Shown here one piece after another: positions 2,682 to 56,673 of a stretch of DNA of 64,000 nucleotides. Within the stretch, counting starts at the first letter, position 1; each line of letters opens with the position of its first letter. The DNA is from PVC group bacterium (lineage in GTDB: Bacteria > Auribacterota > Erginobacteria > Erginobacterales > Erginobacteraceae), in contig JAZDIV010000033.1 in NCBI GenBank assembly GCA_043804695.1, positions 1,907 through 65,906 of the forward strand, given 5' to 3'. The notes beneath the pieces are model-generated. The model saw only the letters and a list, made by a program, of their open reading frames with translations. It did no database searches and was not told the origin of the DNA. A program made the translations under genes and the position numbers.

Positions 2682-2960
2682 CACCACCAAGACACGAAGA
2701 CACAAAAAAGGATCGGGGTTAACCTAAATTAGTTATGAAAATTAAATAATTCCATGAATAATTTAGGTTATTATTTGTCGTTCTATGTATTATGAATAGC
2801 AATCCTGTTATACGGCTACCGCACTCTGCTTTTTTCTTCTCCGGAAGGACAACATGTTATTCTTTTTGTTAACCCTGCCGGCAGAAATAGACCTTTGGCT
2901 GTAATTCATTGCCAAAGAATTTGATAAAATCAATCCTTCGTGTCTTAGTGTCTTTGTGGT
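2682..2960. repeat. split long inverted repeat of the ACCAAGACAC type with a nested palindrome
   Basis: Left arm caccaccaagacacgaagacac (2682-2703) is near-complementary to right arm gtgtcttagtgtctttgtggt (2940-2960). The right arm abuts the dfx RBS. Same arm sequence family as 16250-16340 and 56726-56820. Confidence 0.7.
2719..2770. repeat. palindromic intergenic element, ATTCATGAA family (variant copy a)
   Basis: ttaacctaaattagttatgaaaattaaataattccatgaataatttaggtta. The arms are complementary. Both arms carry cctaaatt where other copies have ccggatt. Confidence 0.75.
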
Positions 2961-4024: not shown

Positions 4025-4035
4025 TTCGAGAACTG

Positions 4036-4080
4036 CTTCGGAATATTCAGTAGCGGAGATCCGCATCTGATACACAATAA
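4036..4080. repeat. conserved-flank hairpin element (CTTCGGAATNTTCAG ... CTGAT.CACAATAA), variant copy
   Basis: cttcggaatattcag-tagcggagatccgcat-ctgatacacaataa. It shares both flanks with 18953-18999 and 56674-56720 but has a different internal hairpin (gcgga gat ccgc). Confidence 0.6.
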
Positions 4081-8506: not shown

Positions 8507-9952
8507 ATGATAAGAAAATCGCTCATCCAGAACGTTTTCCTCGCCGTTTTCGGGCTGCTGCTGGGAATGATCGCCCTCGAAGCCGGTTTGCGGGTTGCCG
8601 CTCGTGTGGTCATGTGGCAAAGAGACCGGGGGGCTTCGCCTTCTCCGGGTGAGCGCGGCCAGTTCACGATTTTATGCGTCGGGGAGTCGACCACCTACTG
8701 CGGCGACCGTTCGTATGCCTACCCCCGTCAGCTGGAATACATCCTGGGAGAACAACATCCCGGCCGCGGCATCCGGGTTATCAACAAAGGAAAACCGGGG
8801 TGCAATTCGGCTTATATAGCCCGCAAACTCCCGGAATGGCTGGCTGAAGATCAACCCGACCTGGTCGTCGCCATGATGGGAATCAATGACTCCCGGGAAC
8901 GGCTCGCAGCCTATTCCGCCGCCGGGGAGGAACCGGGGTTCTGGGAGCGCCTTCGCCTCGTCAAGGTTTTGCGTTTCGCCGGGCAGAACCTCGGATTCAT
9001 CCTGCGCTCCGGGATCAGGACTCTGACCTGGAATGCCGACGATTATGTTTTCGCAGGGATGCGTTTGCTTGAAATCGGGGATGATGAAGAGGCCACGCGT
9101 TTGTTCCGCCGCGCGCTCGAGCGTGACCCCCACTGTGCTGCCGCTCACACGGGCCTGGCCCGTTATTATCTGCACCGGCAGGATTTTAAAAAAATAATGA
9201 GTGAATGCGCTCTCGCGCTCACACACGATCCGAACAACGACCGGGCGATGACGGTCAAGGGGCGGGCGTGCATGGAACAGAGCAAATGGGGCGAGGCAGC
9301 CGGATATCTCGAGCAGGCATTGAGCATCAACCCCCTCAATGATGAAGCCCTCGGCGCCCTCGCCTGGTGCTATTACTGGAAGCAGAAACGTCTGCAGGAA
9401 GCCGAGGATCTTGCCCTCCGGGCTCTCCGGAGCGCCCCGGCGAACCACCTGGCGAACGCGGCGTTGTGGTCTGTGTACAGGAAGCGCGGGGAGACCGGGC
9501 GGGCGCTCGACGTTTGCCTGAAGGCCCACGAGGCCGAGCCCCTCAACGACCGCTACTGCGCCGAAATCGCTCAACTCTATGACGAACTGGGTGCCCCCGA
9601 ATCATCGGAGACATACCGCCAGAAAATCGAATCCGCGCGCCTGAGCGCCGTCAACCCCATGACGGTGGAGAGTTACCGGAAGATCAGGGAGATGTGCCGG
9701 GAGCGGGGGATCCTTCTGGTGGCGGTCCAGTACCCGATGCGAAGCGTTGAGCCGATCGAGAAGATCGTGGGGCCGGGCGAGGGGGTGATCGTCGTCGACA
9801 ACGAGCTCATCTTCAAGGAAGCGGTGAACCGGGACAGCTTTCAGGCATATTTTAAGGACAACTTCGCCGGAGATTTCGGACACTGCACCGCCGAGGGGAA
9901 CCGCCTCCTCGCCGACAACATCGCCCGGCATATCGGCCCGGAGATGAATTGA
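8507..9952 (+). CDS. SGNH/GDSL hydrolase with an internal TPR-repeat insertion
   Basis: N-terminal TM. Block I ILCVGESTTY. GINDS. About 200 aa of TPR-like repeats (ALERDPHCAAAHTGLARYY...). The C-terminus has GHCTAEGNRLLA (DxxH-type block V). Confidence 0.7.
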   Translation: MIRKSLIQNVFLAVFGLLLGMIALEAGLRVAARVVMWQRDRGASPSPGERGQFTILCVGESTTYCGDRSYAYPRQLEYILGEQHPGRGIRVINKGKPGCNSAYIARKLPEWLAEDQPDLVVAMMGINDSRERLAAYSAAGEEPGFWERLRLVKVLRFAGQNLGFILRSGIRTLTWNADDYVFAGMRLLEIGDDEEATRLFRRALERDPHCAAAHTGLARYYLHRQDFKKIMSECALALTHDPNNDRAMTVKGRACMEQSKWGEAAGYLEQALSINPLNDEALGALAWCYYWKQKRLQEAEDLALRALRSAPANHLANAALWSVYRKRGETGRALDVCLKAHEAEPLNDRYCAEIAQLYDELGAPESSETYRQKIESARLSAVNPMTVESYRKIREMCRERGILLVAVQYPMRSVEPIEKIVGPGEGVIVVDNELIFKEAVNRDSFQAYFKDNFAGDFGHCTAEGNRLLADNIARHIGPEMN

Positions 9953-9959
9953 AAGTCAA

Positions 9960-10223
9960 ATGGATCGTAAGCGAGCAGAGATCGACGTCCGCCATCTGAA
10001 GCGGGCGGTCTACGGGCCGGTCGTCGTCGCCTTCCTGGTTTTGATCGCCCTGGTATGGCTGGACGAAGCCCTTGACGTGCCTTTCCTTATCTATCGTACA
10101 TCCCAGACCGCGCCCGGATGGATAGAGGCGCTCGAAGAAACCCTTCTCATCTTCACCATCGCGTTCTTCACCATCGCGGCCCTGCGCGCCGGGCTTAACC
10201 GGCTCATCGACGGGACGAGATGA
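9960..10223 (+). CDS. small membrane protein, unknown function
   Basis: Two predicted TM helices. The stop overlaps the next start (ATGA). Confidence 0.45.
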   Translation: MDRKRAEIDVRHLKRAVYGPVVVAFLVLIALVWLDEALDVPFLIYRTSQTAPGWIEALEETLLIFTIAFFTIAALRAGLNRLIDGTR

Positions 10224-12721: not shown

Positions 12722-13987
12722 CTACTCCTCCGGCGCCCCCTTCATCCTCAGTTGAGCGCCAGTGACGCTATTTGATTCCGGCCGGCCGTACCCTTCGGGA
12801 TAGAGATAGGAGCCCCGCTCCGACTCCGGCTTCTCCTCTTCCACCTGGATCCGGTTATCCTCCGCCCAGGGGTCCCGGCGGATGCCGGTCACCTGCCAGG
12901 AGACCTCCATCCCGGGGGTCCCGCCGGCGATCCGGAAGCTGTTCCCGGACACCTTTTGCGAGATGTAAAGGTTCGGGCCGGGCGCCCCGAGCGGGGTGAG
13001 CTGATAGCGGAAATCGCGGTTGAGGGCCTCGAACCAGTCCGGGAGCGTCACCGCCGCTTCCCCGCTCCCGTCGAGGACCGCGGTGCCATTGTAAATATTC
13101 ATCATGTCCGGCGACTCGACGAAGGAGTGGCTCAGGTAGCGGTTCTCCGGGTCGAGGGGATGGTCGATCCGGAAGCTGCCGCCGGTTTTGTAAAGGGTGC
13201 CCGTGATATTAACATCCCCATTGAACCAGCCGGCGTAACCGGAGGAACTTTCACCATAGATACCCACCCCGAAGTTACTTTTTCCTCCGACGGCTCTCCC
13301 GTTGCTTGCTGTGGTTTCAAACCATCCGGCGTCGTTGGAACCTCCCCGCACCTCTAATTGATAGGTGGGGCTCGCCGTTCCGATGCCAACCCGGCCGGTG
13401 CTCTGCACGATGAAGGCTGACCCCCCCGGCCCGGCGGAGATGAAATTCTGTCCGCAGTCGATAATATCGATTCCGTTATAGGGAGTATCATGGATATAGA
13501 GGGCGCTCCAGCCGGTATTGGCAATTTCAACGCCGTGCCAGGGAGAATTCACGAAGTATCCCCGGCCGCCGTCAACGGTGAGGCGATCCTGGACATAAAG
13601 AGAGTCGGTCCCGATCCCGACGTTTCCCGCGGTAAAATAAAGATTATTCCCTTTCGGGGTCCAGCGGCCGCCCGGCGCGCTGAGGGGGATATCGGTGCCC
13701 CCGCCGTAGTAGGCCCGGGTCAGCCCCCGCACCGCCCAGAGACCGGTTACCGGGCGGAAGATGGCGATATCGTCTTTCCCGTTGTTATTATAGTCCCCGG
13801 GGACCGGGATGTCGCCCGAACCGCCGAAATAGACCCGGGTTATCCCCCGCACCGACCAGAGCCCGCTGGCGGGCCGGAAGATCCCGATGTCATCCCTGCC
13901 ATCCCCGCCGAAGTCCGCTCCCGCCACCGCCCAATTCCAGCTCAAACCGAGCACTGCAACCGCCAGCACCGCCGCCGTTCTTTTCAT
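12722..13987 (-). CDS. secreted protein: two GDYDGDG/GLWAVRG repeat units, a GNVGIGT fibre-like region, and a conserved C-terminal domain
   Basis: AAGGAGG RBS before ATG 13987. Signal peptide MKRTAAVLAVAVLGLS. Two repeat units. C-terminus SFRIDHPLDPENRYLSHSFVESPDMMNIYNG...SWQVTGIRRD. Confidence 0.8.
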   Translation of the reverse strand: MKRTAAVLAVAVLGLSWNWAVAGADFGGDGRDDIGIFRPASGLWSVRGITRVYFGGSGDIPVPGDYNNNGKDDIAIFRPVTGLWAVRGLTRAYYGGGTDIPLSAPGGRWTPKGNNLYFTAGNVGIGTDSLYVQDRLTVDGGRGYFVNSPWHGVEIANTGWSALYIHDTPYNGIDIIDCGQNFISAGPGGSAFIVQSTGRVGIGTASPTYQLEVRGGSNDAGWFETTASNGRAVGGKSNFGVGIYGESSSGYAGWFNGDVNITGTLYKTGGSFRIDHPLDPENRYLSHSFVESPDMMNIYNGTAVLDGSGEAAVTLPDWFEALNRDFRYQLTPLGAPGPNLYISQKVSGNSFRIAGGTPGMEVSWQVTGIRRDPWAEDNRIQVEEEKPESERGSYLYPEGYGRPESNSVTGAQLRMKGAPEE

Positions 13988-14566: not shown

Positions 14567-16207
14567 TTATGAACTTAGAATCTCTGCCAGGTCCTCTTCC
14601 GGATCCCCGATCGGCCTGATCGCGAATTTCTTCACCAGGACCTGGAGGACGCCGGGCGAGACAAACGCCGGGAGGCTGGGGCCAAGGCGGATACCCTTGA
14701 TCCCGAGGTGGAGGAGGGAGAGGAGGACCACCACCGCCTTCTGCTCGTACCAAGAGATGATCAGGGAGAGCGGAAGATCGTTGACCCCGCACTCAAACGC
14801 CCCGGCCAGGGCCTGGGCAATCCGCACCGCCGAGTAGGCGTCGTTGCACTGCCCGACGTCGAGGAGCCGCGGGATCCCGCCAATCTCGCCGAAGTCTCGG
14901 GTATTGAAACGGTACTTTCCGCAGGCCAGCGTCAGGATCACGGTGTCTTTCGGCGTCAGTTCGGCAAATTTTGTGAAGTAGTTCCGCCCGGGCTTGGCCC
15001 CGTCGCAGCCGCCGATCAGGAAGAAATGTTTGATGGCTCCGGTCTTCACCGCTTCGACTACCTGGCCGGCCACGGAGAGAACCGCCTCGTGGGCGAACCC
15101 GACGGTGATGGTCTTCCCCGCCGACTCCTCGAACCCTCCCAGCTTTTTCGCCTTCGCAATCACCGCCGAGAAGTCCTTCGGGCCCCCGTCACGGTCCGGG
15201 ATGTGCGTCACACCCGGCCAGGCGACCAGACCGGTGGTAAAGACCCGGTCCCGGTAGGAGTCGAGCGGCTTCTGGATGCAGTTGGTGGTGAAGAGGATGG
15301 CGGCGGGCACGCCGTCGAACTCCTTTTGCTGGTTCTGCCAGGCGGTGCCGAAGTTCCCCGCCAGATGCCGGTTTTTCTTCAGACCGGGGTACCCGTGGGC
15401 GGGGAGCATCTCCCCGTGGGTGTAAACGTTGACCCCGGTGCCCTCGGTCTGCCGGAGCAGCTCTGCCAGGTCCTTGAGGTCGTGCCCGGTGATGATGATG
15501 GCCGGTCCCTTCCGGGTCCCCAGGAAGACCGGAGACGGTTCCGGAACCCCGAAGTGCTCCCGGTGTCCCTCCGAGAGGAGCGCCATCGCGATGATGTTCA
15601 CCCTCCCGCACTCCAGGTTCAGGGAAACCAGTTCGTCGGCGGAACGGTCGCCTTCCGCCAGGACGGCAAGAGCCCGATTGATAAAATCGTACACCTCGTT
15701 CGAGTCGCTGCCCAGAATACGCGCGTGGTCAGTGTAGGCGGAGAGCCCCTTCAGCCCGAAGAGCAGAAGATGCTCCAGCGAGCGGAGATCTTCGGGCTTT
15801 TTGGGGTCGGCCATCAAGCCGACGCCCGCCGCCTGCTCCAGAAGCTCCGCCCTTGTCCCCGCGGGCTCCCAGGCGGCCGCGGCCGGCGGCCGGAGGCCGG
15901 GATCGGGGGACAGCCCCCGGGCTTTCTCTTTGACTTCCGCCGCCCGGCGGATCAGTCCCTCCAGGCGATCGGGATCGAAGTCGACGTTGGTGATCGTACT
16001 GAAGAGGGCCCGCACGATGAATTCGTTCACCTCCGGGTCCCGTTTCCCCGCCGCCGCACCGAGGGCGGCATACCAGCCGATCCCTTTCACTGCGTGGACC
16101 AGCAGATCCTGCAGGGCGGCTGTCTCCGGGGTCTTCCCGCAGACTCCTCCCACCGTGCAGCCGGTACCTTTGGCCGTCTGTTCACACTGGTAACAAAACA
16201 TGTTCAT
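14567..16207 (-). CDS. hcp: hybrid cluster protein / hydroxylamine reductase
   Basis: N-terminus MFCYQCEQTAKGTGCT. Full-length (546 aa) prismane-family architecture. Confidence 0.95.
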   Translation of the reverse strand: MNMFCYQCEQTAKGTGCTVGGVCGKTPETAALQDLLVHAVKGIGWYAALGAAAGKRDPEVNEFIVRALFSTITNVDFDPDRLEGLIRRAAEVKEKARGLSPDPGLRPPAAAAWEPAGTRAELLEQAAGVGLMADPKKPEDLRSLEHLLLFGLKGLSAYTDHARILGSDSNEVYDFINRALAVLAEGDRSADELVSLNLECGRVNIIAMALLSEGHREHFGVPEPSPVFLGTRKGPAIIITGHDLKDLAELLRQTEGTGVNVYTHGEMLPAHGYPGLKKNRHLAGNFGTAWQNQQKEFDGVPAAILFTTNCIQKPLDSYRDRVFTTGLVAWPGVTHIPDRDGGPKDFSAVIAKAKKLGGFEESAGKTITVGFAHEAVLSVAGQVVEAVKTGAIKHFFLIGGCDGAKPGRNYFTKFAELTPKDTVILTLACGKYRFNTRDFGEIGGIPRLLDVGQCNDAYSAVRIAQALAGAFECGVNDLPLSLIISWYEQKAVVVLLSLLHLGIKGIRLGPSLPAFVSPGVLQVLVKKFAIRPIGDPEEDLAEILSS

Positions 16208-16361
16208 CTCGTACCTCCTTATAAATTACTCGCTTCGCTCACAACTTTTGCCACTAAGACACCAAGACACCAAGAAAAACCAAATAAAGTGAGTATTTTT
16301 CTTTTCCCTCTTTTCTTGGTGTCTTTGTGCCTTGGTGGCTAATAATTTTTAAATTCCGAAA
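16208..16361 (-). repeat. leader cassette copy A (long ACCAAGACAC hairpin plus conserved 5' and 3' flanks) upstream of hcp
   Basis: 16250-16340 matches the reverse complement of 56726-56820, with 2 mismatches by eye in the first ~50 nt. The flanks tggctaata...aaattccgaaacag and aaaagtt... are shared. Both copies have the same orientation relative to the downstream ORF, with the hairpin ending about 41-43 nt before the start codon. Confidence 0.8.
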
Positions 16362-16368
16362 CAGCGTC

Positions 16369-18911: not shown

Positions 18912-18952
18912 CTTGTTGTAGCGAAGCGGAAATCCCGATGTATCGGGGCTGC

Positions 18953-18999
18953 TTCGGAATTTTCAGCCAGAGGCTGATGCGCCTCTGGAGCACAATAAA
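18953..18999. repeat. 47-nt double-hairpin element
   Basis: ttcggaattttcagccagaggctgatgcgcctctggagcacaataaa differs by eye at 2 positions from 56674-56720. Hairpins are tcagcc-N3-ggctga and tgcgcc-tct-ggNgca. Confidence 0.8.
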
Positions 19000-19140
19000 T
19001 TAACAAAACGGCTATCGTTGAACGGTTGCGCTGCTCGAAACGTTGAACGGCGTACGGTTACGTGCGGCTCGCCCCCGCAACCGATTCCAGCTGCGCAACC
19101 GCAACCTTTTAACCCGAACGTTGCCCGAGCGAAGCGAGGG

Positions 19141-19834: not shown

Positions 19835-19885
19835 TTAATCCAGATTATTCATGAAAATTAAATACTTTCAAGAATAATCCAGGTT
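19835..19885. repeat. palindromic intergenic element, ATTCATGAA family (copy b, degenerate)
   Basis: ttaatccagattattcatgaaaattaaatactttcaagaataatccaggtt, 25 nt upstream of the tamA start. Confidence 0.7.
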
Positions 19886-21877: not shown

Positions 21878-24562
21878 ATGAAAGTGACTCGTATATTAAA
21901 AACCATAATAAAATACGTCTTCCGCGCTCTGATGCTGCTCCTGGCACTGGTCGCGGTGCTCCTGGGCGTGATCCAGACCCCGGCCGGGAAGAGGCTGCTC
22001 GCCGACGGGATTACCGCTCTGGCGAGTTCGGACGACGGGTCGGGAGTGACTTTCAGATCGCTCTCCGGTTTCATCCCCTTCCGCTTCGGTGTCGGCGAAT
22101 TCAAAATCAGCGACCCGGAAGGTGACTGGCTGGTGGCAGAGGACATATCGCTGCGCATGGACGCGGGGAGCCTCCTCCTTTTCCGCCTCCGGGCGGAAGA
22201 GGTGACCGCCGGGAGGGTCACCTGGCGGAGGCTGCCGGCAGGGACGGATGACGACAGGAGAGCAGAGGACCCGGAGGAGGAGGGTTTCACCCCCCGGGAC
22301 ATCCCCTCCTTTGCCGTGGAGCGCCTGTGGATAAAAAACCTGACCGCGGAAGAATCCCTGCCGGGGAAACGGATTGTCGCCGAGCTGAAAGGACATGTCC
22401 GCAACGATTCGGCCGGCGGCGCCGGCGTCAACCTGGCCCTGAAACCGGTCGGTCGGGATGGTGATGACCTGACCGTGGCGGGGATGGCGGCGGCCGATCT
22501 GTCATCCCTTTCCCTGGACATCAAGCTCGACGAAGAAGCGGGAGGGAACCTGGGAAGCCTGATCATTCCCGGGGACTCCGTGCCTCTCTCCCTCCGGCTG
22601 CATGGCGGGGGACCGTGGGAAGCCTGCCGGGTCAGGCTGGCGGTCCGGGCCGCGGAGCGCGGAGAGCTGGACCTGGACGTCGTCTTCGACATCTCCCGCA
22701 CGCTGGCGGAGGGCACGCTGACGGCGGCCATTACCCGGCTGCCGGGGCCGGCGGGCGGAATCGAGAGCGGGCGGCTGTCGGCCCGGCTGGCCGTCGAAAA
22801 CGGCCGGCAGAACATATCCGCCCGGATCGAGGCGGACGGCCTGAAAACGCCCCTGGGGCACGTCGAACGGATCGAGGCGACCGTTGACGGCACCGACATC
22901 CTGCAGGATCCCCGCGGGACCGTCGAGTTCACCGCCCACGGCCTTCGCCCCGCTCCTCCGGGAGCGGAAGAGATGGCGGAGGCAGAGCTGGCCCGAACCG
23001 TCACCGGCCGGCTCACCCTCCGGGACACGGATCACCGGCCCCGGGCTGACCTGGAGATTCAGATCGAAAAATACGCCCTGCCCGGATCGCCCATCAGCCC
23101 GGCGGGGACGCGGCGGCTTACGATCCAGGCTCACCTCGAGGACGGCCAAATCCACGCCGAGCTCGACAGCGGCCGGGAGGGGGACATCCTTCTGCAGGCG
23201 AAGATGACCGCGAAGGCCGACTTCTCCCTCGCTCCCCTCATCTTCCGCCTCGACGAAGGGGGGCCGATCGAAGGCGAGCTTTCGGCGCGGCTCGATCTTT
23301 CTTTTCTGAACAACCGCCTGGCCCTCTCCCGCCAGAGCCTCCGCGGCACTCTCAGCGCCGACCTCACCGCCGGGGGCACCATCCGGAAACCGGAGCTGAA
23401 CGGAGAGATCAGCCTCCGCAAGGGAGAATATCAGAACCTGGTTTCCGGGACGGTCCTCAGCGGCCTGACCGCGACCGTGAAAGCCAAGTCAGACCGCCTG
23501 GAAATCACCGAGCTGTCGGCCCGGACGCCGGCGGGGGGAAAGATCTCCCTGACCGGCCATGCCCGGCTCTCTCCCCGGGACGGTTTTCCCCTTTCCCTGT
23601 CACTCCTGCTGACAGATGCCCAGCTGGTGGACATGGAGATGGTAACGGCAGCGCTGGCCGGGAAGATAGACCTGGAAGGAAGCCTGGAAAAGAGCCGCCT
23701 CGGCGGAAAGATAACGATCAAGAAAGCGGAAGGGCGCATCCCGAGCAAATTGTCCTCCGGGGTACCGGAGATCACCGTCACCGAGATCAACAAACCGGGG
23801 GGGACGGCGGTTCCTCACCCCGCGGCTTCCTCTTCCTTCCTGAAAACGGTCGCCCTCGATCTCCGCCTCACGGCCCCGGAAGACGTATTCATCAAAGGCC
23901 GGGGACTGGATTCCGAGTGGAAGGCCGATGTCACCGCCACCGGGACGGCCGACGCCCCTTCCCTGCGCGGCGGCATCACCCTGCTCGACGGCATCTTTAT
24001 TTTCATGGGGGAAGAGCTCAAGCTGGAAAACTGCAGCATCATGATGGACGGCGGCTTCCCCCCGGTCCCGCAGCTGAAGATCAACGCCCGGATCGTGAAG
24101 TCGGACATCACGATCACGCTCCAGGTAGTCGGCCCGGTCAACGCCCCGGAGGTGATCCTCTCATCCCAGCCCCCCTACCCGGCCGACGAGATCCTCGCCC
24201 GGCTCCTTTACGGGCGCCCGGCATCTCAGCTGAGCGGCCTCCAGGCTTTGCGGATAGCCGACGGGCTCCGGACACTGCAGGGGAAAGGAGGCATCCTTGA
24301 CCGCCTGACCGGATGGACTTCCTTCCTGGGGAATGTCCAGGTTGATTTCACGGAGCTGGAGGGAAGCACCGACCAGACCGCGGTCCGGGTCCGGTGGAGC
24401 CTGAGCAAGAACTTCTATGTTGAAAACCAGCACTCCATTGATGCCCGCGACAATCTCTTCCTGGCCCGCTGGGACCTGACCCGAAGACTCCAGCTCCGCA
24501 CCCAGTCGGGCTACGGTTTTCTCGGGGACGCCGTTTACCTGCGTTACCAGTGGGATTATTAA
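21878..24562 (+). CDS. tamB: TamB-like translocation and assembly module protein (DUF490)
   Basis: N-terminal TM (FRALMLLLALVAVLLGV). C-terminus WSLSKNFYVENQHS...YLRYQWDY is typical of DUF490. The start was chosen downstream of the hairpin; 21803 and 21854 are alternatives. Confidence 0.8.
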   Translation: MKVTRILKTIIKYVFRALMLLLALVAVLLGVIQTPAGKRLLADGITALASSDDGSGVTFRSLSGFIPFRFGVGEFKISDPEGDWLVAEDISLRMDAGSLLLFRLRAEEVTAGRVTWRRLPAGTDDDRRAEDPEEEGFTPRDIPSFAVERLWIKNLTAEESLPGKRIVAELKGHVRNDSAGGAGVNLALKPVGRDGDDLTVAGMAAADLSSLSLDIKLDEEAGGNLGSLIIPGDSVPLSLRLHGGGPWEACRVRLAVRAAERGELDLDVVFDISRTLAEGTLTAAITRLPGPAGGIESGRLSARLAVENGRQNISARIEADGLKTPLGHVERIEATVDGTDILQDPRGTVEFTAHGLRPAPPGAEEMAEAELARTVTGRLTLRDTDHRPRADLEIQIEKYALPGSPISPAGTRRLTIQAHLEDGQIHAELDSGREGDILLQAKMTAKADFSLAPLIFRLDEGGPIEGELSARLDLSFLNNRLALSRQSLRGTLSADLTAGGTIRKPELNGEISLRKGEYQNLVSGTVLSGLTATVKAKSDRLEITELSARTPAGGKISLTGHARLSPRDGFPLSLSLLLTDAQLVDMEMVTAALAGKIDLEGSLEKSRLGGKITIKKAEGRIPSKLSSGVPEITVTEINKPGGTAVPHPAASSSFLKTVALDLRLTAPEDVFIKGRGLDSEWKADVTATGTADAPSLRGGITLLDGIFIFMGEELKLENCSIMMDGGFPPVPQLKINARIVKSDITITLQVVGPVNAPEVILSSQPPYPADEILARLLYGRPASQLSGLQALRIADGLRTLQGKGGILDRLTGWTSFLGNVQVDFTELEGSTDQTAVRVRWSLSKNFYVENQHSIDARDNLFLARWDLTRRLQLRTQSGYGFLGDAVYLRYQWDY

Positions 24563-24611
24563 ACCGGATTATTCATGAAAATTTTCAATTTCCATGAATA
24601 ATCCGGTTTAA
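24560..24611. repeat. palindromic intergenic element, ATTCATGAA family (copy c)
   Basis: taaaccggattattcatgaaaattttcaatttccatgaataatccggtttaa. The tamB stop codon TAA is part of the left arm. Confidence 0.8.
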
Positions 24612-29061: not shown

Positions 29062-29226
29062 GACACGGGCATCTGCTGTGCACTATAAAGTAGCGGGCCA
29101 ACTTGATGCTTCGGAATTTCAAAAACGGTAACGGCTGCCTCGCCGGGCGCACGTAACCCTAACCGGCAGACGAAACGGGCAGCGTCACCGTAACCGTAAC
29201 CACGTTGCGCCGAAGGCGCTAATTTA

Positions 29227-29971: not shown

Positions 29972-29988
29972 CGCGCGCCTTCTGTCAG

Positions 29989-30033
29989 CCCGGATTATTC
30001 ATGAAAATTAAAAATGTTCATGAATAATCCAGG
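29989..30033. repeat. palindromic intergenic element, ATTCATGAA family (copy d)
   Basis: cccggattattcatgaaaattaaaaatgttcatgaataatccagg. Confidence 0.8.
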
Positions 30034-30071
30034 TAATCGCTTATCGTTCCCTGTATTAGGAATACATCGGG

Positions 30072-32785: not shown

Positions 32786-32809
32786 ACCCGATTTATGCAT
32801 AAATCGGGT
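32786..32809. repeat. short palindrome acccgatttatgcataaatcgggt
   Basis: Perfect 10-bp arms. It overlaps the stop codon of the upstream (minus-strand) gene. Confidence 0.6.
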
Positions 32810-34611
32810 CAGCGCGTCACCGGGATGTCGCCGGCGGACCCGAAATACAGCCGGGTGACGCCCCGGATCGCCCACAGCCCGGAAGCAGCCCGGAAGATAC
32901 CGATCTCCTGATTGCCGTTCCCGGAGTACCCGGCGGGGACCGGACGGTCGTTCCCGCTCCCGAAGTAGGCCCGGGTTATCCCACGGATCGCCCATAGACC
33001 CCCCGCCCCGGCGGGGCGGAAGATACCCGCCTCGGCCGTCCCGTCGCCGTCAAAATCCCCCGGAACCGGCTGACCGCTCCCGAAATAGAACCGGCTGATG
33101 CCCCGGACCGCCCAGAGACCGTTGGCGGAGCGGAAGACGGCGAGATCGAAAGCTCCGTCCCCATTGTAATCTTCCGGGACCGCCGTGTCGAGGGACGACC
33201 CGAAATAGGCCCGGGTTATCCCCCGGGCCGTCCAGAGCCCTCCTGAAGACCGGAAGATCGCGATGTCGGCGCCCCCGGCGCCGTCGTAGTCGCCGGGCAC
33301 CGGCTGGTCGCCCGGTCTCCCGAAGTAGGCTCGGGTCAGACCCCTCACCGCCCAGAGACCGGCGGAGGAACGAAAGACCGCAATCTCGGCGCTCCCGTTG
33401 CCGTCATAATCGCCGGGAGCGGTGGTGGTGCCGGAGTCGCCGAAGTAGGACCGGGTCACCCCCCGGACCGCCCAGAGGCCGGTCTCCCCCCGGAAGATAG
33501 CGATGTCGGCGGTGCCGTCGCCGTCGTAGTCCCCTCCGGCCAGGACCGGAGGAGCTTCCGGGCGCCCCCGGTAGTAGTCGGAAGCGATGCCGGCGGTGTA
33601 CGCGGTCCAGGCGGCGGGGGACGAGTTGATCCGAAGGTCCGACCAGCTCCCGTCGTCATTCTCCCACCGCTCGGAGTAGACGACCGCGACCCGGACCCGG
33701 GGATAAACGGACGGCAGGGAGGCCAGCGCCCCCGTATACCAGGCCGCCTTGTCCCCCTTCAGCGGGTACTCCCCCACCCCCCATTCGGCCAGGATCAGCG
33801 GTTTCTCGGCGGAAAGAGCACAGATCGCGCTGTACGCCGGCGTCATCAGGGCTTCGAAACTCTCCCAGTCCTCATCGGCATACTGGACCCCGTAAACGCT
33901 GAAGCCGAGCCAGTCGACATAGCCGTCCCCGGGGTAGTAGGCGGCGATCGAGTTCCAGGGCTCATCAGGAAACGACTCGTGGTTGGCGTGAAAATACCAG
34001 GTGACATTGTCCGCCCCCCGGGTCCGGAAAAGATCGACGATGTGGCGGAAGGCGTCGACGAACCGTTCCGGCCCGTCGGCTTTCGTTGGGTCGCCGTAAC
34101 CGGTGGCGGCGGCGCCGCCCTGATAGGTCCCGGACCAGGGGAACCAGTCGCCGTTCATCTCCACCCCGAAGTTGACCATCACCGGCCTCCCGAAGGCCTT
34201 CACCCGATCGGCCCAGGCGGAGAGAAAAACATCAAAGTCCCCGTCAATGATCTTCTGGAGCGAATAGGCCGGCTGATATCCTTCCGTCCAGTAGGGCTCC
34301 CCCCAGGGCATCAGCCGGAGCATCGGTACCGCCCCGTACCGCCCCATCGCCTCCAGCTGCTCCCCGGAGACCGTCTGCTCCCCCCAGAAGACCGAGAAGG
34401 GGGAGAAGGCGACCGCCTTCCCGGTCAGCTGCTCGAGATTCTCCAATTCCCCCGCGGTAACATCGTCCTCGTGTTCGCCCCAGCCCGGGAAGACCCCGGT
34501 GTAGCAGCCGTACCCGGGCGGGAGGACCGCCCCCCGGGCGCCGGGCGCGCCGGGGGGAGAAAAGACGGCGAACCCTGCCGCCAGCATAATGGCTGTGAGT
34601 TTCTTGCCCAT
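32809..34611 (-). CDS. secreted GH26-like glycoside hydrolase fused to six GDYDGDG/GLWAVRG repeat units
   Basis: GGGGGAGG RBS before ATG 34611. Signal peptide. VMVNFGVEMNGDWFPWSG and LAEWGVGEY segments are GH26/mannanase-like. Six ~40-aa repeats end in GDIPVTR-stop. Confidence 0.85.
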   Translation of the reverse strand: MGKKLTAIMLAAGFAVFSPPGAPGARGAVLPPGYGCYTGVFPGWGEHEDDVTAGELENLEQLTGKAVAFSPFSVFWGEQTVSGEQLEAMGRYGAVPMLRLMPWGEPYWTEGYQPAYSLQKIIDGDFDVFLSAWADRVKAFGRPVMVNFGVEMNGDWFPWSGTYQGGAAATGYGDPTKADGPERFVDAFRHIVDLFRTRGADNVTWYFHANHESFPDEPWNSIAAYYPGDGYVDWLGFSVYGVQYADEDWESFEALMTPAYSAICALSAEKPLILAEWGVGEYPLKGDKAAWYTGALASLPSVYPRVRVAVVYSERWENDDGSWSDLRINSSPAAWTAYTAGIASDYYRGRPEAPPVLAGGDYDGDGTADIAIFRGETGLWAVRGVTRSYFGDSGTTTAPGDYDGNGSAEIAVFRSSAGLWAVRGLTRAYFGRPGDQPVPGDYDGAGGADIAIFRSSGGLWTARGITRAYFGSSLDTAVPEDYNGDGAFDLAVFRSANGLWAVRGISRFYFGSGQPVPGDFDGDGTAEAGIFRPAGAGGLWAIRGITRAYFGSGNDRPVPAGYSGNGNQEIGIFRAASGLWAIRGVTRLYFGSAGDIPVTR

Positions 34612-34706: not shown

Positions 34707-36635
34707 CTATCTCGTCACCGGCAGGTCACCGGCCGTTCCGTAATAGACCCGGGAGCCGTCCCGGACGGCCCAGAGTCCGAAGTCCTGCCGGAAAACGCCG
34801 GGGTCATCGGCCCCGTCGCCGTTGAAATCGGCCCGGAGTGGGTAGTCGGTGCACCGGCCGAAGTAGAAGCGGGTGACGCCGCGGACCGCCCAAAGGCCGG
34901 TCGACCAGGGGCGGAAGACGGCCGCCTCCCAGGTTCCGTCGGCGTCGTAGTCCCCGGGGAGCGGCCAATCGTCGGCCCCGCCGAAGTATATCCGGGTGAC
35001 CCCCCGAATCGCCCAGAGGCCGGAGGATGGACGGAAGATGCCGAAGGCCGCCCTTCCGGCACCCTCATAGTCGCCGGGGACGGCCGAATCCCCGGAGGCG
35101 CCGAAGTAGGCGCGGGTGACCCCGCGGGCGGACCAGAGGCCGGCGGGCGGACGGAAGATGGTGACGTCGGCGGTGCCGTCACCGTCATAGTCGGCCGGGG
35201 CCGGCGTGTCGCCGGCCACGCCGTAGTAGCTGCGGGTGACCCCGCGGACCGCCCAGAGGCCGGAAGCGGAGCGGAAGATGCCGATGTCGGCGGTGCCGTC
35301 ACCGTCATAGTCCCCGGAGACGGGCGCGTCCCCTGACCCTCCGAAGTAAGATCGGGTGATATCTCTCACCGCCCAGAGACCGGTGTTCCCCCGGAAGACG
35401 GCGATGTCGGCGGTGCCGTCGCCGTCGTAGTCACCCGCCTCCAGGATGAAGCCGGGGCGGGGCACGGTCGGTCCGCAGGTCGGGGTGGGGCCGGGGGTCC
35501 GGGGTGTTGCCGTCGGTGAAGATATCGGAGCAGGCGTCCGGGACGGCGGGGGGCTCGCGGTCGGGAACGGGGCAGCCGTTGCCGAGGGGGAGGGGGATGG
35601 AGTGCCGGTGACCATCGGCGTAGGCGACGGCAAAGGAAGCATATACGTGTCGACGATGCCCCCCCCGCGGGAGACAAACGTGAAAGTGATGTACCCTCCA
35701 TCGGCTTCGATCAACATGGCCCCGTAATCCCCGTTGTAACGGACCCTGCTCTCAGGCAGCGGGGTGTCGAAGCTGTAAATGCTCCGCCCCCCCAGCCCAT
35801 TGACGAAATAGGGAAGATCGCCTACCAGGAGGCGCTCATACGTATGCGCGTGCCCGCTGATGACCGCCGACGCCCCCCAGGGACCGAAGGGCCACTGCAT
35901 TCGGACGGTTGATCCATGAACCTCGTCTGACGAGTAGGGCGGCTCGTGAAAGCTCACAATCTTCCAGGGAGCGGCGGAAGCAGCCAGGCCGGACTGGAGC
36001 CACGCGGCCTGAACCGAGGTATCGTCGGTGCCGTCGGGCTCGCGGATGTCGCTGTCGAGAAAAAAAAGATGAACCGGCCCGTACTCGAAGTCATAATAGC
36101 GCTCGTTGCCGGGCAGGGTGAAATAGTTGAAGTACGGGCCGCTGCAACCGCCGGCGCAGGTTAGGGAATCCCAGTCGTGGTTCCCGAGCGAGGGAAAGAA
36201 GCGGTTCGACTCCGCCCCGGGCCCGTACGCGCCGGTATAAGGATACATAAATTCGTGGTAATACTGCCCGATGTTGTCGTCGATAGTGGAGGCGGCTCCG
36301 GACGGGTAGTTATTGTCGCCGGCGGTGATAATCAGGTCCGGCCCCCAGCCCTGCACCAGGACAGCGACGTCTTCCTCCGGGGCGCCCGCCCACCCGAAAT
36401 CGCCGATGACCGCAATCCGGACGGAGAGGGGCGGTGAAGGTGAGGGCAACGGGGCGCTGCCCCCGTAAACGGCATCAACGTAATAACGATTAAACGTGAA
36501 CCCGGTCGACGGGAAAAGGGCGGAGGGATAGCCCAGAAGACCGATAAGAAAGAGCATCGCCAGAGACAGGCCGAAGAAAAGACGGGAGAACCTCAGGGAG
36601 CGGCCGTAAAATTCTGTCGAGGAGATTGCCATCAT
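34707..36635 (-). CDS. secreted calcineurin-like metallophosphoesterase fused via a Pro/Thr/Ser linker to six GDYDGDG/GLWAVRG repeat units
   Basis: IAVIGDFG...AGDNNY...GNHDW...HEPPYSS...SGHAHTYER motifs. Linker PSPTPMVTGTPSPSPSATAAP... Six repeats end in GDLPVTR-stop. Confidence 0.85.
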   Translation of the reverse strand: MMAISSTEFYGRSLRFSRLFFGLSLAMLFLIGLLGYPSALFPSTGFTFNRYYVDAVYGGSAPLPSPSPPLSVRIAVIGDFGWAGAPEEDVAVLVQGWGPDLIITAGDNNYPSGAASTIDDNIGQYYHEFMYPYTGAYGPGAESNRFFPSLGNHDWDSLTCAGGCSGPYFNYFTLPGNERYYDFEYGPVHLFFLDSDIREPDGTDDTSVQAAWLQSGLAASAAPWKIVSFHEPPYSSDEVHGSTVRMQWPFGPWGASAVISGHAHTYERLLVGDLPYFVNGLGGRSIYSFDTPLPESRVRYNGDYGAMLIEADGGYITFTFVSRGGGIVDTYMLPLPSPTPMVTGTPSPSPSATAAPFPTASPPPSRTPAPISSPTATPRTPGPTPTCGPTVPRPGFILEAGDYDGDGTADIAVFRGNTGLWAVRDITRSYFGGSGDAPVSGDYDGDGTADIGIFRSASGLWAVRGVTRSYYGVAGDTPAPADYDGDGTADVTIFRPPAGLWSARGVTRAYFGASGDSAVPGDYEGAGRAAFGIFRPSSGLWAIRGVTRIYFGGADDWPLPGDYDADGTWEAAVFRPWSTGLWAVRGVTRFYFGRCTDYPLRADFNGDGADDPGVFRQDFGLWAVRDGSRVYYGTAGDLPVTR

Positions 36636-39919: not shown

Positions 39920-39941
39920 GGCTGATCCCAGGCCGGGCGTC

Positions 39942-40149
39942 TTAACCCGGATTATTCACGAAAACTTCGTTTTCGCTCATAACCGCCTGTGAGAAAGCAG
40001 ATTGCTTTCTCACAGGCTTCGACGCGGTGCTTCGCACCTTGCTCAGGGTTAACCCTGAGCGGAATCCTGAGCCAGTCGAAGGATGGAGTCGAAGCCCGGA
40101 GGGCGACTTGTTCAGGGAACCGTCAGGTTTCATGAATAAGTCGGGTTAA
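39942..40149. mobile_element. ~200-bp MITE-like long form of the ATTCATGAA palindromic element, between cusB and cusA
   Basis: Terminal inverted repeats are ttaacccggattattcacgaaaa (39942-39964) and tttcatgaataagtcgggttaa (40128-40149). The interior is a chain of hairpins (39986-40016 perfect 13-bp stem; 40041-40060). The right end supplies the cusB stop codon. Confidence 0.55.
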
Positions 40150-43263: not shown

Positions 43264-43402
43264 GTGATTTTTTTCGTACCGGGAAGCTCCCTCTGGGCGG
43301 TTCCGGGCGGCAGCCGGGTCTATTTCGGCGCCGCGGGAGACACGCCCGTGCCCGGGGACTACGCCGGGAACATCATCGATGACATCACTCGGTTCGATGG
43401 CG
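43264..43402 (+). pseudogene. orphan fragment (~1.3 units) of the GDYDGDG/GLWAVRG repeat
   Basis: Reads IFFVPGSSLWAVPGGSRVYFGAAGDTPVPGDYAGNIIDDITRFDGG, with no start codon, signal peptide or catalytic head. Confidence 0.45.
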
Positions 43403-43647
43403 GAGCGAACCCTCATTTGGGGCGTGTTTTCGAATCTGACCGCCGGCGGTTGGGGCGCGAATTCCGGGGACAGGACTATTCCGCAATTCCGGCCCGGCGG
43501 CAGCTCAAAGACCGCCCGAAAAGTTTTCTTTTAACTTGTCCGGCGGGCAAGTTTGCATTCTTATAGCCGGCTGAACATTATGCTGGTATAGTTTCTCATG
43601 CAGGGAGTTCTTTAATCATAAATTTCAAAGGAGGTTGAGATATCGGG

Positions 43648-45426
43648 ATGAAAAAGCTGCTGGTAGCCGTCATCTTTTCCGTGATCCAGTTGGGTGCTGA
43701 TGGAAAGGCCGAGGCCTGTTCGGATGTTTTCGTCAACCAGGGGAGCGAGAAAGTTTCAGGCCGGAACATCGACTGGCCGATCGGCAATGCCATCCGGATG
43801 TCGCTGAATCCCCGGGGCGTGTACCAGACCGCCGTGCCCCTGCTGCCCGGAGATCAACCGGTAAGCTGGGTCTCCCGGTACGGGAGTATCACGCTGGGAT
43901 TGTATTTTATCGGCTCCTATATTCACCTGGACGGGATGAACGAGCACGGTTTGAGTGTGGGGATGCTGATGATGCTCGATGCGGTCTATCCGCCCCCCGA
44001 TTCCCGGCCGTACCTGAACGATGACAGATGGCCGCAGTACTACCTCGACAACTGCCGGACCGTCGCCGAGGTGGTGGCCATTGCGCCCACAATGAGAGTA
44101 TTCTGCCTGGTGGGGGGACACCTGGTTTTACACGATGCCTCCGGCGACTCCGCCGTAATGGAGTATGTTAACGGCGAATTGAAAATATACCTACCCCCGG
44201 AATATAACGGCGTGCTGACCAACGATCCCGACTATGAAGAACAATTGGCCAATCTCGCCAATTATGCGGGGTTCGGAGGGGACCTCCCTCTGCCCGGCGG
44301 CGTTGAATCCGAGTCCCGCTTCGTGCGGGCCTCCTGGTACCTCCAGACGCTCCCCGTGCCGGAATCGCTCGAAGAGACGATCGGCTCGACCCTGGCCATC
44401 ATGCAGAATGTAGCCAAACCTCTCTTCGACCGGGAGCAAAGTTGTACCCTGAGCACCAGCATTCGCGACCACACCGCTAAAAGGTATTACTGGCGCTCGT
44501 TCTGCCAGCCCAATCTCAGATACGTTGATCTGGATGCGGTGGACTTTTCGCCCGGCAACCCGGTAAGAGTGCTCGACCTCTATGCCGACCTGGTGGGCGA
44601 TGTTGAAAGCTACTTCAAGCCTGATCCCTCGCAACTGGTTATCCCCCGGGGGGACTATGACGGGGACGGGACCTCGGATATCGCCGTCTTCCGGGCGTTA
44701 TCCGGGATGTGGGCGGTCCGGGGGATAACCCGGGTTTACTTCGGTTCTCCGAAGGACCTGCCGGTGCCCGCAGATTATAGGGGTGACGGCACCACGGACA
44801 TCGCGGTTTATCGGGGCAATTCCGCCCTCTGGGCGATTAGAAACGTAACCCGGGATTACTTCGGAGGCCCGGCCGGCCGACCGGTCCCCGGAGATTACAA
44901 TGGTGACGGCAGTTCCGACATCGCCGTCTTTCAGGATAGAATTGGCCTCTGGGCTATCAAAGGCATAACCAGGACCTATTTCGGAAGCAGGGGTGATTTG
45001 CCGGTTGCCGGGGACTATGACGGGGACGGGACGATCGATATCGGGGTTCTCCGGCGCCGGATCGGCAGTGACCAATGGATCATTAAGGATCTCAGCCGCT
45101 TCTATTTCGGGGACGGGATGGGGATAGCTGTGCCCGGAGATTACGACGGCGACGGAACCTGGGAAGCCGCCCGTTACGCTCCTCTTACCTACGACTCCGC
45201 GCTCGGACGATGGGTAGTAAGGGGAATGAGCGATGTAATTTACGGCCTGGCTACCGATCTGCCGGTCCCGGCCGATTATGCCGGCGACGGCTCCGTCCGC
45301 CCGGCGATCTTCCGGGAGGATTCCGGCCTGTGGGCGGTCCGGGACCTGACCCGCTGCTACTTCGGCACCTGGTACGATCTGCCCTCCACCCGCCATAACT
45401 CACGGAAGCATGCTCGCCCCCGGTAA
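43648..45426 (+). CDS. secreted Ntn-hydrolase (choloylglycine hydrolase / linear amide C-N hydrolase family) fused to six repeat units
   Basis: AAAGGAGG RBS. The signal peptide ends ...GKAEA-CSDVFV, with the nucleophile Cys at the mature N-terminus. Six more divergent repeat units follow. Confidence 0.85.
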   Translation: MKKLLVAVIFSVIQLGADGKAEACSDVFVNQGSEKVSGRNIDWPIGNAIRMSLNPRGVYQTAVPLLPGDQPVSWVSRYGSITLGLYFIGSYIHLDGMNEHGLSVGMLMMLDAVYPPPDSRPYLNDDRWPQYYLDNCRTVAEVVAIAPTMRVFCLVGGHLVLHDASGDSAVMEYVNGELKIYLPPEYNGVLTNDPDYEEQLANLANYAGFGGDLPLPGGVESESRFVRASWYLQTLPVPESLEETIGSTLAIMQNVAKPLFDREQSCTLSTSIRDHTAKRYYWRSFCQPNLRYVDLDAVDFSPGNPVRVLDLYADLVGDVESYFKPDPSQLVIPRGDYDGDGTSDIAVFRALSGMWAVRGITRVYFGSPKDLPVPADYRGDGTTDIAVYRGNSALWAIRNVTRDYFGGPAGRPVPGDYNGDGSSDIAVFQDRIGLWAIKGITRTYFGSRGDLPVAGDYDGDGTIDIGVLRRRIGSDQWIIKDLSRFYFGDGMGIAVPGDYDGDGTWEAARYAPLTYDSALGRWVVRGMSDVIYGLATDLPVPADYAGDGSVRPAIFREDSGLWAVRDLTRCYFGTWYDLPSTRHNSRKHARPR

Positions 45427-45588: not shown

Positions 45589-46357
45589 TTCTCAGGTCGG
45601 TTATAGTAAAGCGGGTCTCCCCTATTTCACGCCGACCGAGACCCAGATCATAGTCGAGTGGGGGCGTCGAGCTTCCTCCCCGGACGACAAGACCCGGCTG
45701 GCTGGTATCACCATATACATGAAGTTTTGCGCCGGGACTGGTGGTCCCGATACCGACGTTCCCGGTCCGCTGGAAGGTGACCCGGTAGGCATCCTGAGTC
45801 TCATCGTAGAGGTAGAGCTTGTTGGCGGAACCATTGTAATAAATGCTCATGGCAATGGCGCCGCTCTCCCAGAATTCCACCAAGGAATTAGAGTTGACGC
45901 CGGATCCGTGAAGCGCCAGGGTGGCAGCATTGCCAGCGTCACCGGTATCCCAGACGTCCAGGTCGGAAGCGGAGGCAGTTGTCCCGATACCAACGGTGCC
46001 CGAATTGTAATAGATACCGCTTCCGCTCGGGAGCCAACGCCCGCCGTCACCCCCCAGGGAAATATCAGCGGAATTTCCGAAATAGGCCCGGGTCACGCCA
46101 CGGACGGCCCATAAACCGGTGCCCGGCCGGTTGACGGCTATCTCGTCGGTTCCGTCGCCGTTGTAGTCCCCGGGAGCCGGGTTGTCTCCCGTACCGCCGA
46201 AGTAAGCCCGGGTCACGCCACGGACGGCCCACAGACCGACATTGGGCCGGAATATACTGATGTCGTCGGTCTCATCGCCGTTAAAGTCGGCGGCCGGGGA
46301 GACTAGTCCGCGACTCAAGCTGAACAATACGACCAAAATCATCGCCGATCTCTTCAT
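45581..46357 (-). CDS. secreted protein: two repeat units plus a GTVGIGT/GNVGIGT fibre-like region
   Basis: Signal peptide MKRSAMILVVLFSLS. Two repeat units (ADFNGDETDDISIFRPNVGLWAVRGVTRAYFG...). Resembles the N-terminal half of 12722-13987. Confidence 0.75.
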   Translation of the reverse strand: MKRSAMILVVLFSLSRGLVSPAADFNGDETDDISIFRPNVGLWAVRGVTRAYFGGTGDNPAPGDYNGDGTDEIAVNRPGTGLWAVRGVTRAYFGNSADISLGGDGGRWLPSGSGIYYNSGTVGIGTTASASDLDVWDTGDAGNAATLALHGSGVNSNSLVEFWESGAIAMSIYYNGSANKLYLYDETQDAYRVTFQRTGNVGIGTTSPGAKLHVYGDTSQPGLVVRGGSSTPPLDYDLGLGRREIGETRFTITDLRRE

Positions 46358-48821: not shown

Positions 48822-49039
48822 TCCGGATCCGGCTTATTCAATCTCGCAGGCTGGCCGCTTCGCGTCCATGCCGTGCAGGTGATTACACACTAAAATAACT
48901 CCCCCGGCAGTTCCCCTCCCCGTCAGAACCGTTCCTCCCAGGCGTCTATTGTTTAACGGCATCTGCCTCAAGGCAGTTGCCGGGTTTATACTCCTCATCT
49001 TTTCCTCCCTTAAAAAATTAAAAAAAATCAAAAAAAGTA

Positions 49040-49068
49040 TTGACTACTTCGTCTAAATCGACTATATG
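49040..49068 (+). promoter_or_regulatory. candidate sigma70-type promoter with an A-rich upstream tract
   Basis: TTGACT - 17 nt - TATATG, preceded by aaaaaattaaaaaaaatcaaaaaaag. Confidence 0.4.
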
Positions 49069-56322: not shown

Positions 56323-56340
56323 CTTTCCCTCCTGCATGGC

Positions 56341-56489: not shown

Positions 56490-56519
56490 TTCTGTTTTTA
56501 CCGAGATAAAACTCTGTAA

Positions 56520-56668: not shown

Positions 56669-56673
56669 ACTGT

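Follow-up and report, generated by a model that had tools for sequence, protein, structure and literature searches.

The window analysed here, a 64-kb stretch of contig JAZDIV010000033.1 to which all positions refer, carries three copies of a long imperfect hairpin, each formed by two inverted arms, in the spacers upstream of hcp, tupA and dfx. The gene for the hybrid-cluster protein, hcp (14567–16207, minus strand), lies downstream of open reading frames (ORFs) for an Rrf2 regulator and a cupin-domain protein on the same strand, and the hairpin that precedes it occupies 16250–16339 (minus strand; arms 16250–16278 and 16311–16339). A second copy lies upstream of tupA (56727–56819, plus strand), and a third arm pair (2682–2960, plus strand; arms 2682–2703 and 2935–2960) brackets almost the entire rbr-dfx spacer, its left arm starting 9 nt past the rbr stop codon and its right arm ending 18 nt before the dfx ATG. 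All three copies sit in spacers of co-directional units, just past a stop codon or a riboswitch terminator and inside transcription units; they represent insertions between cistrons and not dedicated leaders.

The hcp and tupA copies are inverted near-copies of this hairpin (67 nt, 87%), as a first-pass annotation of this DNA had noted. When aligned in the sense of the downstream gene they are ~90% identical over ~130 nt, loop included, in an alignment that runs from the left flank CTGTTTCGGAATTT through the two arms and their loop to the motif AAAAGTT, and they are recent duplicates. At hcp the common stretch (16236–16364, minus strand) is composed of a repeat that we call module A (16351–16364), an AT-rich linker, the hairpin and AAAAGTT; it begins 4 nt past the upstream cupin-domain stop codon, and 28 nt separate its end from the hcp ATG. 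The two copies are indeed oriented alike with respect to the ORF that follows, as had been claimed, and the claimed distance of 41–43 nt to the start codon is correct for hcp (42 nt, ATG at 16207). For tupA, however, the ATG at 56870, with the better ribosome-binding site, is 50 nt away, and a distance of 41 nt is obtained only with a GTG at 56861. The arms described on either side of the rbr-dfx spacer were likewise confirmed, with ~230 nt enclosed.

The arms are tandem octamer arrays of the form (A/G)CCAC-NAAG-NCAC-NAAG-NCAC. In each window arm pair (A/G)CCAC precedes two or more tandem octamers CACNAAGN, the arrangement by which the family is defined, with (G)CCAC and 2.5–3 octamers in each arm of the hcp copy, and the arm pattern CCACNAAGNCACNAAGNCAC has six exact matches in the window, where shuffled sequences average 0.37 even at three mismatches. 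The three arm pairs are inverted and enclose loops of ~32, ~45 and ~230 nt; their stems carry 1x1 mismatches at the N positions, as expected of a family defined by fixed CAC and AAG triplets and a free fourth base. RNA folds of all three copies give a stem of 5+7+7 bp with these mismatches (z = −4.2 to −5.6; for the hcp copy 5+7+7+ bp, z = −4.4). The window copies have features typical of miniature inverted-repeat transposable elements (MITEs), i.e., terminal inverted repeats, a size below ~500 bp and no ORF. A lone arm that had been reported next to a truncated sulfatase ORF does exist (62130–62152, plus strand, 15 nt upstream of the ORF), but its sequence, ACCACGAAGGTCACGAAGCAAAG, is degenerate, with one 9-nt unit, does not match the arm pattern at up to three mismatches and has no partner arm, which makes it by itself a poor candidate for the family. 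The sulfatase fragment was ruled out as cargo between arms, since no 3' arm lies behind it.

Upstream of tupA the hairpin is part of a repeat mosaic between the terminator of a riboswitch and the ribosome-binding site. The aptamer, of the molybdenum-cofactor (Moco)/tungsten-cofactor type (56515–56633, plus strand; RF01055, 69.8 bits), is followed by a strong terminator hairpin (56634–56665, plus strand; a 10-bp stem with 9 G-C pairs, then a T run), and because the long hairpin comes only after this terminator it has no part in the riboswitch decision. In the Rfam search only this neighbouring Moco RNA passed, the long hairpin giving microRNA-precursor-like noise far below the thresholds. Scans for other signals gave no sigma-70-like promoter in the element, so that a sigma-70 promoter was rejected, and no intrinsic terminator at the hairpins, which lack a U run, so that this candidate was rejected as well. 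In the Rfam alignment the riboswitch is without a P3 hairpin, a variant that goes with tungsten-cofactor genes. tupA itself is split into two frames, 56870–57358 (the N-terminal part, 162 amino acids) and 57403–57765 (the C-terminal part, ~120 amino acids), and represents either a frameshifted pseudogene or an assembly error.

Insertion into a mosaic of small repeats

The loci of the closest Hcp homologues in two relatives (L126 and L127; 85% and 77% identity) allow the spacers to be compared. In L127 the rbr-dfx spacer is only 16 nt long (TAAatcAGGAGGcaataaaATG) versus 305 nt in the window, and the hcp spacer 19 nt versus 161 nt; these short spacers indicate that the spacers of the window are insertions. 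The empty rbr-dfx site of L127 reads TAAatcAGGAGG...ATG. In L126 the hcp spacer (227 nt) consists of unrelated small hairpins and leads into the ribosome-binding site also seen in the window, and elsewhere in this relative a lone arm is joined to the same loop start as in the window cassette and then to CTATTTCGGAATTT, which points to shuffling of modules within the lineage. The earlier view of the cassette as a mobile or recombining module is thus supported by the recent duplication, by insertions that are absent in relatives and by the dispersed, multi-phylum arm family described below. In the L126 hcp spacer (9774–10000), AACTTTAGGCACTTAA occurs twice in direct orientation, along with several mini-hairpins rich in GC.

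The flanks of the hcp and tupA hairpins had been said to align. They do, but as neighbouring repeat modules and not as a single functional unit. At tupA, module A (CTGTTTCGGAATTT, 56670–56683) and two mini-hairpins (TCAGCCTGAGGCTGA, TGCGCCTCTGGCGCA) form a separate repeat unit (56670–56713, plus strand), of which a second copy occurs without the long hairpin at 18949–19000. The two mini-hairpins (56684–56713) account for the extra piece by which the tupA copy had been found to differ, although this amounts to 32 nt and not to ~37 nt. The sequence CTGYTTCGGAATTT occurs at seven sites in the window (4033–4046, 16351–16364, 18949–18962, 29106–29119, 46072–46085, 56670–56683 and 63936–63949), where 0.5 are expected, and again at 8968–8981 in L126, the closest relative. 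A further mini-hairpin module lies in the tupA leader (56820–56846, plus strand; AAGTT-AGCGC-GGAG-GCGCT-AAGTT), with related copies near 29200 and in L126 (~9058–9081), the repeated form being AAGTT-GCGCC-GGAG-GCGCT-AACTT, and the loop of the rbr-dfx copy contains a member (2719–2769) of another palindromic family with six copies in the window, the others lying at 19835–19885, 24559–24609, 29985–30035, 39935–39967 and 56329–56361. The embedding in this mosaic of small repeat modules explains why ~130 nt, and not the hairpin alone, are common to hcp and tupA.

Some further repeats were noted. The CTGYTTCGGAATTT sites are mostly found directly past stop codons or terminators, and at two of them the same GC-rich mini-hairpin pair follows. 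The second palindromic family (~50 nt, core CCGGATTATTCATGAAAATT...CATGAATAATCCGG) is intergenic and unrelated to the octamer arms. Five 36-nt tandem units (GTCGATnATGACCAAnnTGTCGTACTCAACCAATCA) are present in an intergenic region at 49051–49230, and several large ORFs on both strands contain coding repeats with a 120-nt period (13665–13926, 32805–33573, 34717–35474, 43290–45404, 46056–46299 and 48096–48829), which translate into G-, D- and Y-rich repeats of 40 residues; these ORFs look like genes of large secreted or surface proteins.

The arm family in other phyla and in phages

When one genome per species was scanned with the arm pattern, at least 120 loci with the same arms came up, spread over many phyla; a separate scan of viral contigs also yielded at least 120 loci. 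In a collection of the size of the genome set a few hundred single arm matches could arise by chance, but most of the matches listed have a nearby partner arm. Among the genome matches listed, 67 loci contain a total of 73 complete hairpins, whose loops measure 12–411 nt and whose hosts belong to the Acidobacteriota, Planctomycetota, Chloroflexota, Bacteroidota, Ignavibacteria, Desulfobacterota, Nitrospirae, Cyanobacteriota and Alphaproteobacteria. By eye, T-rich sequence often lies 5' and A-rich sequence 3' of the stem in family hairpins, on both strands. Of the 120 viral loci listed, 71 contain complete hairpins, with as many as four per 5 kb, and these phage hairpins are positioned between the genes of major head, tape-measure, portal and tail proteins. 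Plasmids yielded no hairpin-like DNA by blastn. Four IMG/VR contigs (L158, L175, L178 and L201) carry gene-less hairpins at several gene boundaries of structural operons.

The genes next to these hairpins come in all arrangements. Among the matches listed, 43 hairpins could be placed between 27 tandem, 11 convergent and 5 divergent ORF pairs, based on crude ORF calls with ORFs overcalled at the hairpins, while the background in the same loci consists of 350 tandem, 95 convergent and 98 divergent pairs. The neighbour classes are thus close to the background, and the hairpins of the family are, therefore, not specifically leaders.

The alignment of the 73 arm pairs reveals that sequence is conserved in the stem and pairing is not. 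The CAC and AAG positions are nearly invariant and mostly more than 90% paired, somewhat less toward the loop, an invariance that is partly built in by the choice of 5' arms with an exact pattern, whereas the N columns and the outer pair are free of this bias. Pairing is absent at the five N columns in 39, 27, 36, 37 and 45 of the 73 hairpins, respectively, and complementarity at the N positions is 40% versus 32% for shuffled partners. Column by column, the variable stem positions of these 73 pairs show no covariation, with the sole exception of the outermost pair, which is A-U in 38 and G-C in 29 hairpins. Selection for a stem, be it of RNA or DNA, would have given compensatory changes, and since none are seen at the N positions the sequence pattern fits better with two inverted copies of one protein recognition array.

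These data bear on the interpretation in the first-pass annotation, i.e., that the cassette is a cis-regulatory 5'-leader RNA or promoter cassette dedicated to redox-stress genes and a metal-uptake operon. The near-identity of two copies that share their orientation to the downstream ORF and end 42–50 nt from its start codon would agree with this, as would the position of the third copy before dfx, another oxidative-stress gene, and the RNA folds, which are more stable than those of shuffled sequences (by the z-scores given above). However, with two copies a shared orientation carries no statistical weight, the family adjoins unrelated genes in all arrangements as well as phage structural operons, and hcp and dfx of close relatives do without the hairpin. 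No Rfam family corresponds to it, the element holds no promoter- or terminator-like site, and in the tupA leader it lies past the riboswitch terminator. Data akin to two of the checks proposed along with this idea also speak against it: in loci of other species the hairpins were placed near tandem, convergent and divergent gene pairs much like the background, and the variable stem positions of the family hairpins do not covary. A shared leader regulator of redox-stress and metal-uptake genes is, therefore, unsupported, and we consider a dedicated leader very improbable.

A conserved recognition sequence could also mean that the arms are operators of a host DNA-binding regulator and that hcp, dfx and tupA form one regulon. 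The sites are indeed repeated, sequence-defined and in inverted orientation, and an Rrf2 regulator is encoded upstream of hcp. Yet the same arms are found in many phyla, where they adjoin unrelated genes, as well as in phages and on either side of a nuclease gene (see below), their spacing ranges from 12 to over 400 nt, and the elements lie downstream of promoters, within transcription units, so that there is hardly any room for this explanation. DnaA boxes, Chi sites and parS were rejected, as their sequences do not fit. Integron attC sites were considered by inspection of the 73 hairpins: those with GCCAC-type ends lack the AAC/GTT of the R'' (RYYYAAC) and R' (GTTRRRY) boxes, and those of the ACCAC type fit only occasionally.

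GxxExxY genes between the arms

In three loci (L018, L020 and L031), arms without a close partner enclose an ORF of ~130 codons that encodes a GxxExxY protein (TIGR04256, E ~1e-39; PF13366, PDDEXK_3), and the same layout is found in L099 and for one gene of L113. In these five arm-picked cases the arms abut the start and stop codons. A second sample comprised 11 GxxExxY genes chosen without reference to arms, i.e., close homologues, genes from annotated replicons and by-catch. Octamer-array arms bracket 7 of these 11, directly at the start and stop codons (L128, L132, L136, L139, L140, L141 and the second gene of L113), whereas a shorter CACGGAT-type inverted repeat is present in L093 and L262, L138 is partial and L263 has none. 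The close homologues share arms of the type GCCAC(NAAGNCAC)2NAAGG..ATG ... stop-NCTTNGTGNCTTNGTGGC and are located at ftsA and ftsZ (L128–L131), in an operon of the Fe-S/FrhB type (L132–L135) or upstream of a DUF2207 gene (L136 and L137). In annotated replicons the arms are of the CACAGAGA type in Bernardetia (at ade and manC), TTCACCACAGAGGACACAGAGG in Bacteroides finegoldii (at radA and the gene of an FAD-dependent protein) and CACGCGAAGGCGCG in Sphingomonas (at fabD and fabG); in Treponema, with a Fic family gene downstream, there is an 11-bp CACGGATTCG inverted repeat, in Gemmatirosa an adjacent CGCAGAGG hairpin, and in Prevotella, next to hypothetical genes, no inverted repeat. Of the by-catch, the second gene of L113 has CACAGAGA arms and L093 the CACGGAT-type repeat just mentioned.

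The 5' arm ends 6–27 nt before the start codon of the GxxExxY gene and has a purine-rich inner end (AAGG or AAGA), so that it may supply the ribosome-binding site; the 3' arm begins 1–31 nt past the stop codon. The octamer unit, CACNAAGN in the window type, can be written more generally as CRC-N-RAG-R, and the type of arm tracks the divergence of the protein: CACNAAGN goes with a subfamily that is 58–87% identical, CACAGAGR or CGCGAAGG with proteins of ~40%. In at least eight full elements with readable neighbours, both adjacent host genes run in the direction of the element, ftsA|ftsZ and fabD|fabG among them, and the ORFs flanking the L099 element resemble parA and parB by eye. For the full elements in ftsA/ftsZ, parA/parB-like and fabD/fabG spacers (L128–L131, L099 and L141) transcription of the respective operons, which are essential, must read through the element.

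The family of GxxExxY proteins is large, with 23,469 clusters at 50% identity (profile search, E ≤ 1e-3), and 80–87% identical proteins are found in records named Desulfobacterales, Cloacimonetes and Ignavibacteriales, many of them on contigs shorter than 2 kb. A published survey lists PF13366 as a family of unknown function with multiple transfers (PMC3424549). D74 and K86 are invariant and E84 is nearly so. No solved structure was matched by sequence and no family was matched in PADLOC or PHROGs, but the AlphaFold model is confident (predicted local distance difference test, pLDDT, 92.9), and its best structural neighbours, all weak (E ≥ 0.018), are Cas4, lambda exonuclease and a tRNA-splicing endonuclease. 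The model is closest to PD-(D/E)XK nucleases, in line with no more than a minimal version of this fold. Some members of ~275–295 amino acids (e.g., P0242, P0246 and P0251) give two profile matches, being tandem-duplicated or fused doublets. In viruses, no GxxExxY gene was found by a protein-pattern scan of the viral contigs or by tblastn of 1.05 Mb of hairpin-bearing loci.

From the arms, the insertions and the gene-bearing elements taken together, it seems probable that the hairpins of the window are gene-less copies, MITE-like or "empty-site", of a selfish GxxExxY hairpin element that lie embedded in a mosaic of other small repeats. The full element of the CACNAAGN type consists of the ~130-codon gene exactly between two inverted octamer-array arms, residing co-directionally in short operon spacers where host transcription reads through it, and the window copies have the arms around short, unrelated loops. 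The fixed CAC and AAG triplets may be contacted by a protein with sequence specificity, for which the GxxExxY nuclease, acting in trans, is the most plausible candidate, and the gene-less hairpins may either be propagated in the manner of MITE derivatives or, in a homing-type variant, provide the sites into which the nuclease gene moves. Any effect on hcp, dfx and tupA would then be a side effect of a stable, mismatch-studded stem that separates the upstream cistron or riboswitch from the ribosome-binding site, for instance through RNase III processing or altered mRNA stability. A broader proposal, for which we would put the chances at a little under even, is that octamer hairpins and GxxExxY genes constitute an undescribed class of selfish elements across phyla, in which a minimal PD-(D/E)XK nuclease would read CRC-N-RAG-R arrays; the element would reside in operons, essential ones included, without disrupting them and would leave many gene-less hairpins behind in operon spacers, riboswitch leaders and phage late operons.

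Several observations weigh against this interpretation. No GxxExxY gene was detected, at permissive thresholds, in the 64-kb window or in 43 kb of the two relatives, and the window loops bear no trace of one, so that an origin by deletion lacks support. Target-site duplications were not seen at the junctions of the window copies or the full elements, and comparison of the filled with the empty rbr-dfx site shows none either, though the two lineages are diverged. The selection of 5' arms by an exact pattern, noted above, also counts here, and the density of hairpins in phage late operons could mean that they have a selected function of their own. GxxExxY proteins are not known to act as nucleases or transposases, and we know of no precedent for a 130-residue PD-(D/E)XK protein acting alone as a transposase. 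In viruses, no GxxExxY gene was found by a protein-pattern scan of the viral contigs or by tblastn of 1.05 Mb of hairpin-bearing loci.

If the hairpin itself were selected, it would act as an intercistronic mRNA element, i.e., an RNase III site, an exonuclease barrier or a means of uncoupling translation, and the GxxExxY gene would be a secondary passenger. The location of hairpins near stop codons in short transcribed spacers is in line with this, and so is their presence at several gene boundaries of phage late operons, where dead weight is costly. Moreover, stems of 25–30 bp fall within the size range of RNase III substrates, and RNase III excises the architecturally similar intervening sequence of the Coxiella 23S rRNA (PMC4990558). 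However, about half of the N positions are mismatched, without an excess of G-U on the sense strand (6 G-U versus 4 A-C mismatches in the full elements), a need for structure alone would not keep the CAC and AAG triplets across phyla, and relatives lack the hairpin at the same sites. We consider a selected mRNA element improbable.

In a variant of the main explanation the roles of hairpin and gene are reversed: the octamer hairpin would be an independent dispersed repeat and GxxExxY a homing nuclease that cuts empty hairpins and is copied into them by repair through arm homology, so that the window copies would be unoccupied target sites and not deletion derivatives. The gene always lies exactly between the arms, empty hairpins are ~30 times commoner (gene-less to gene-bearing hairpins ~170 : 5 in the arm-pattern samples, among the matches listed), and the empty loops contain no gene remnant. 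The partial conservation of the arms, as for a protein recognition site, and the association of arm type with protein subfamily would likewise be expected. This leaves unexplained, however, how the hairpins spread to new spacers and across phyla; arms of 25–30 bp are short for homologous repair, and the nuclease activity on which homing would depend is predicted from the modelled fold. We regard homing as rather unlikely, and continue to favor gene-less copies of a selfish element.

For the window this implies that the shared cassette is inserted repeat DNA and provides no evidence of one hcp/dfx/tupA regulon. More generally, a large family of unknown function is tied to a defined DNA architecture, a link that could explain a common unnamed class of hairpins in metagenome-assembled genomes, where such hairpins may also break assemblies. 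It further appears that hairpins insert between the cistrons of essential operons without polar effects.

Comparison with known repeat systems

Searches of the literature, covering open-access papers only, retrieved no published description of the hairpin element, the intervening sequence of the Coxiella 23S rRNA being the sole analog that they yielded. Among its closest parallels are the repetitive extragenic palindromes (REPs) and bacterial interspersed mosaic elements (BIMEs) of Proteobacteria with their REP-associated tyrosine transposase (RAYT, TnpA-REP). These are also short extragenic palindromes that fill spacers within and at the ends of operons, combine with other small motifs into mosaics and far outnumber an associated gene of small nuclease type that has inverted copies on either side; an influence on mRNA stability is known as a side effect. 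REPs, however, are 20–40 nt long, with each unit palindromic, a GTAG-type head and a lineage-specific distribution, whereas the arms described here are octamer arrays that start with (A/G)CCAC, are not self-complementary and are shared across phyla. In addition, RAYT is an HUH/Y1 enzyme, while the gene between the arms belongs to PF13366 with a predicted PD-(D/E)XK-like fold.

MITEs share with the window copies the inverted ends, the small size, the lack of coding capacity, the many copies and a larger one-gene relative with the same ends. They differ in that no target-site duplication was seen here, the associated protein is no known transposase and the loops are without gene-derived sequence. 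The full element has a further analog in the intervening sequence (IVS) of the Coxiella burnetii 23S rRNA, which is ~430–460 nt long with terminal inverted repeats, a stem of ~28 bp and one small ORF in the loop, has no promoter of its own, is transcribed in the host RNA, shows a sporadic, horizontally transferred distribution and is excised by RNase III (PMC4990558). The likeness comprises the terminal stem, the small loop ORF, the absence of an own promoter, transcription within host RNA and sporadic transfer. IVSs, however, sit in rRNA helices, have nearly perfect stems without regular mismatches and carry an ORF of another family, S23p (PF05635, a four-helix bundle), whereas the window copies lie between protein-coding genes.

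The enterobacterial repetitive intergenic consensus (ERIC) or intergenic repeat unit (IRU) elements are imperfect palindromes of ~127 nt that occur in transcribed regions between genes and have variants with internal insertions, comparable with the 130- and 160-nt forms found here. Their sequence is different, they are confined to Enterobacteria and Vibrio, and to our knowledge no gene is associated with them. Foldback (FB) transposons also combine long inverted ends of short tandem repeats with a variable middle and coding sequence in some copies only, but are eukaryotic, much larger and unrelated in sequence and proteins. Octamer arrays with a free fourth base, their sharing across phyla, a PD-(D/E)XK gene in the loop and residence in essential and phage late operons were not found in Rfam or in the searched literature; the kind of element itself, a dispersed extragenic palindrome with an associated nuclease gene, is already known and comparable to REP/RAYT, MITEs and ERIC.

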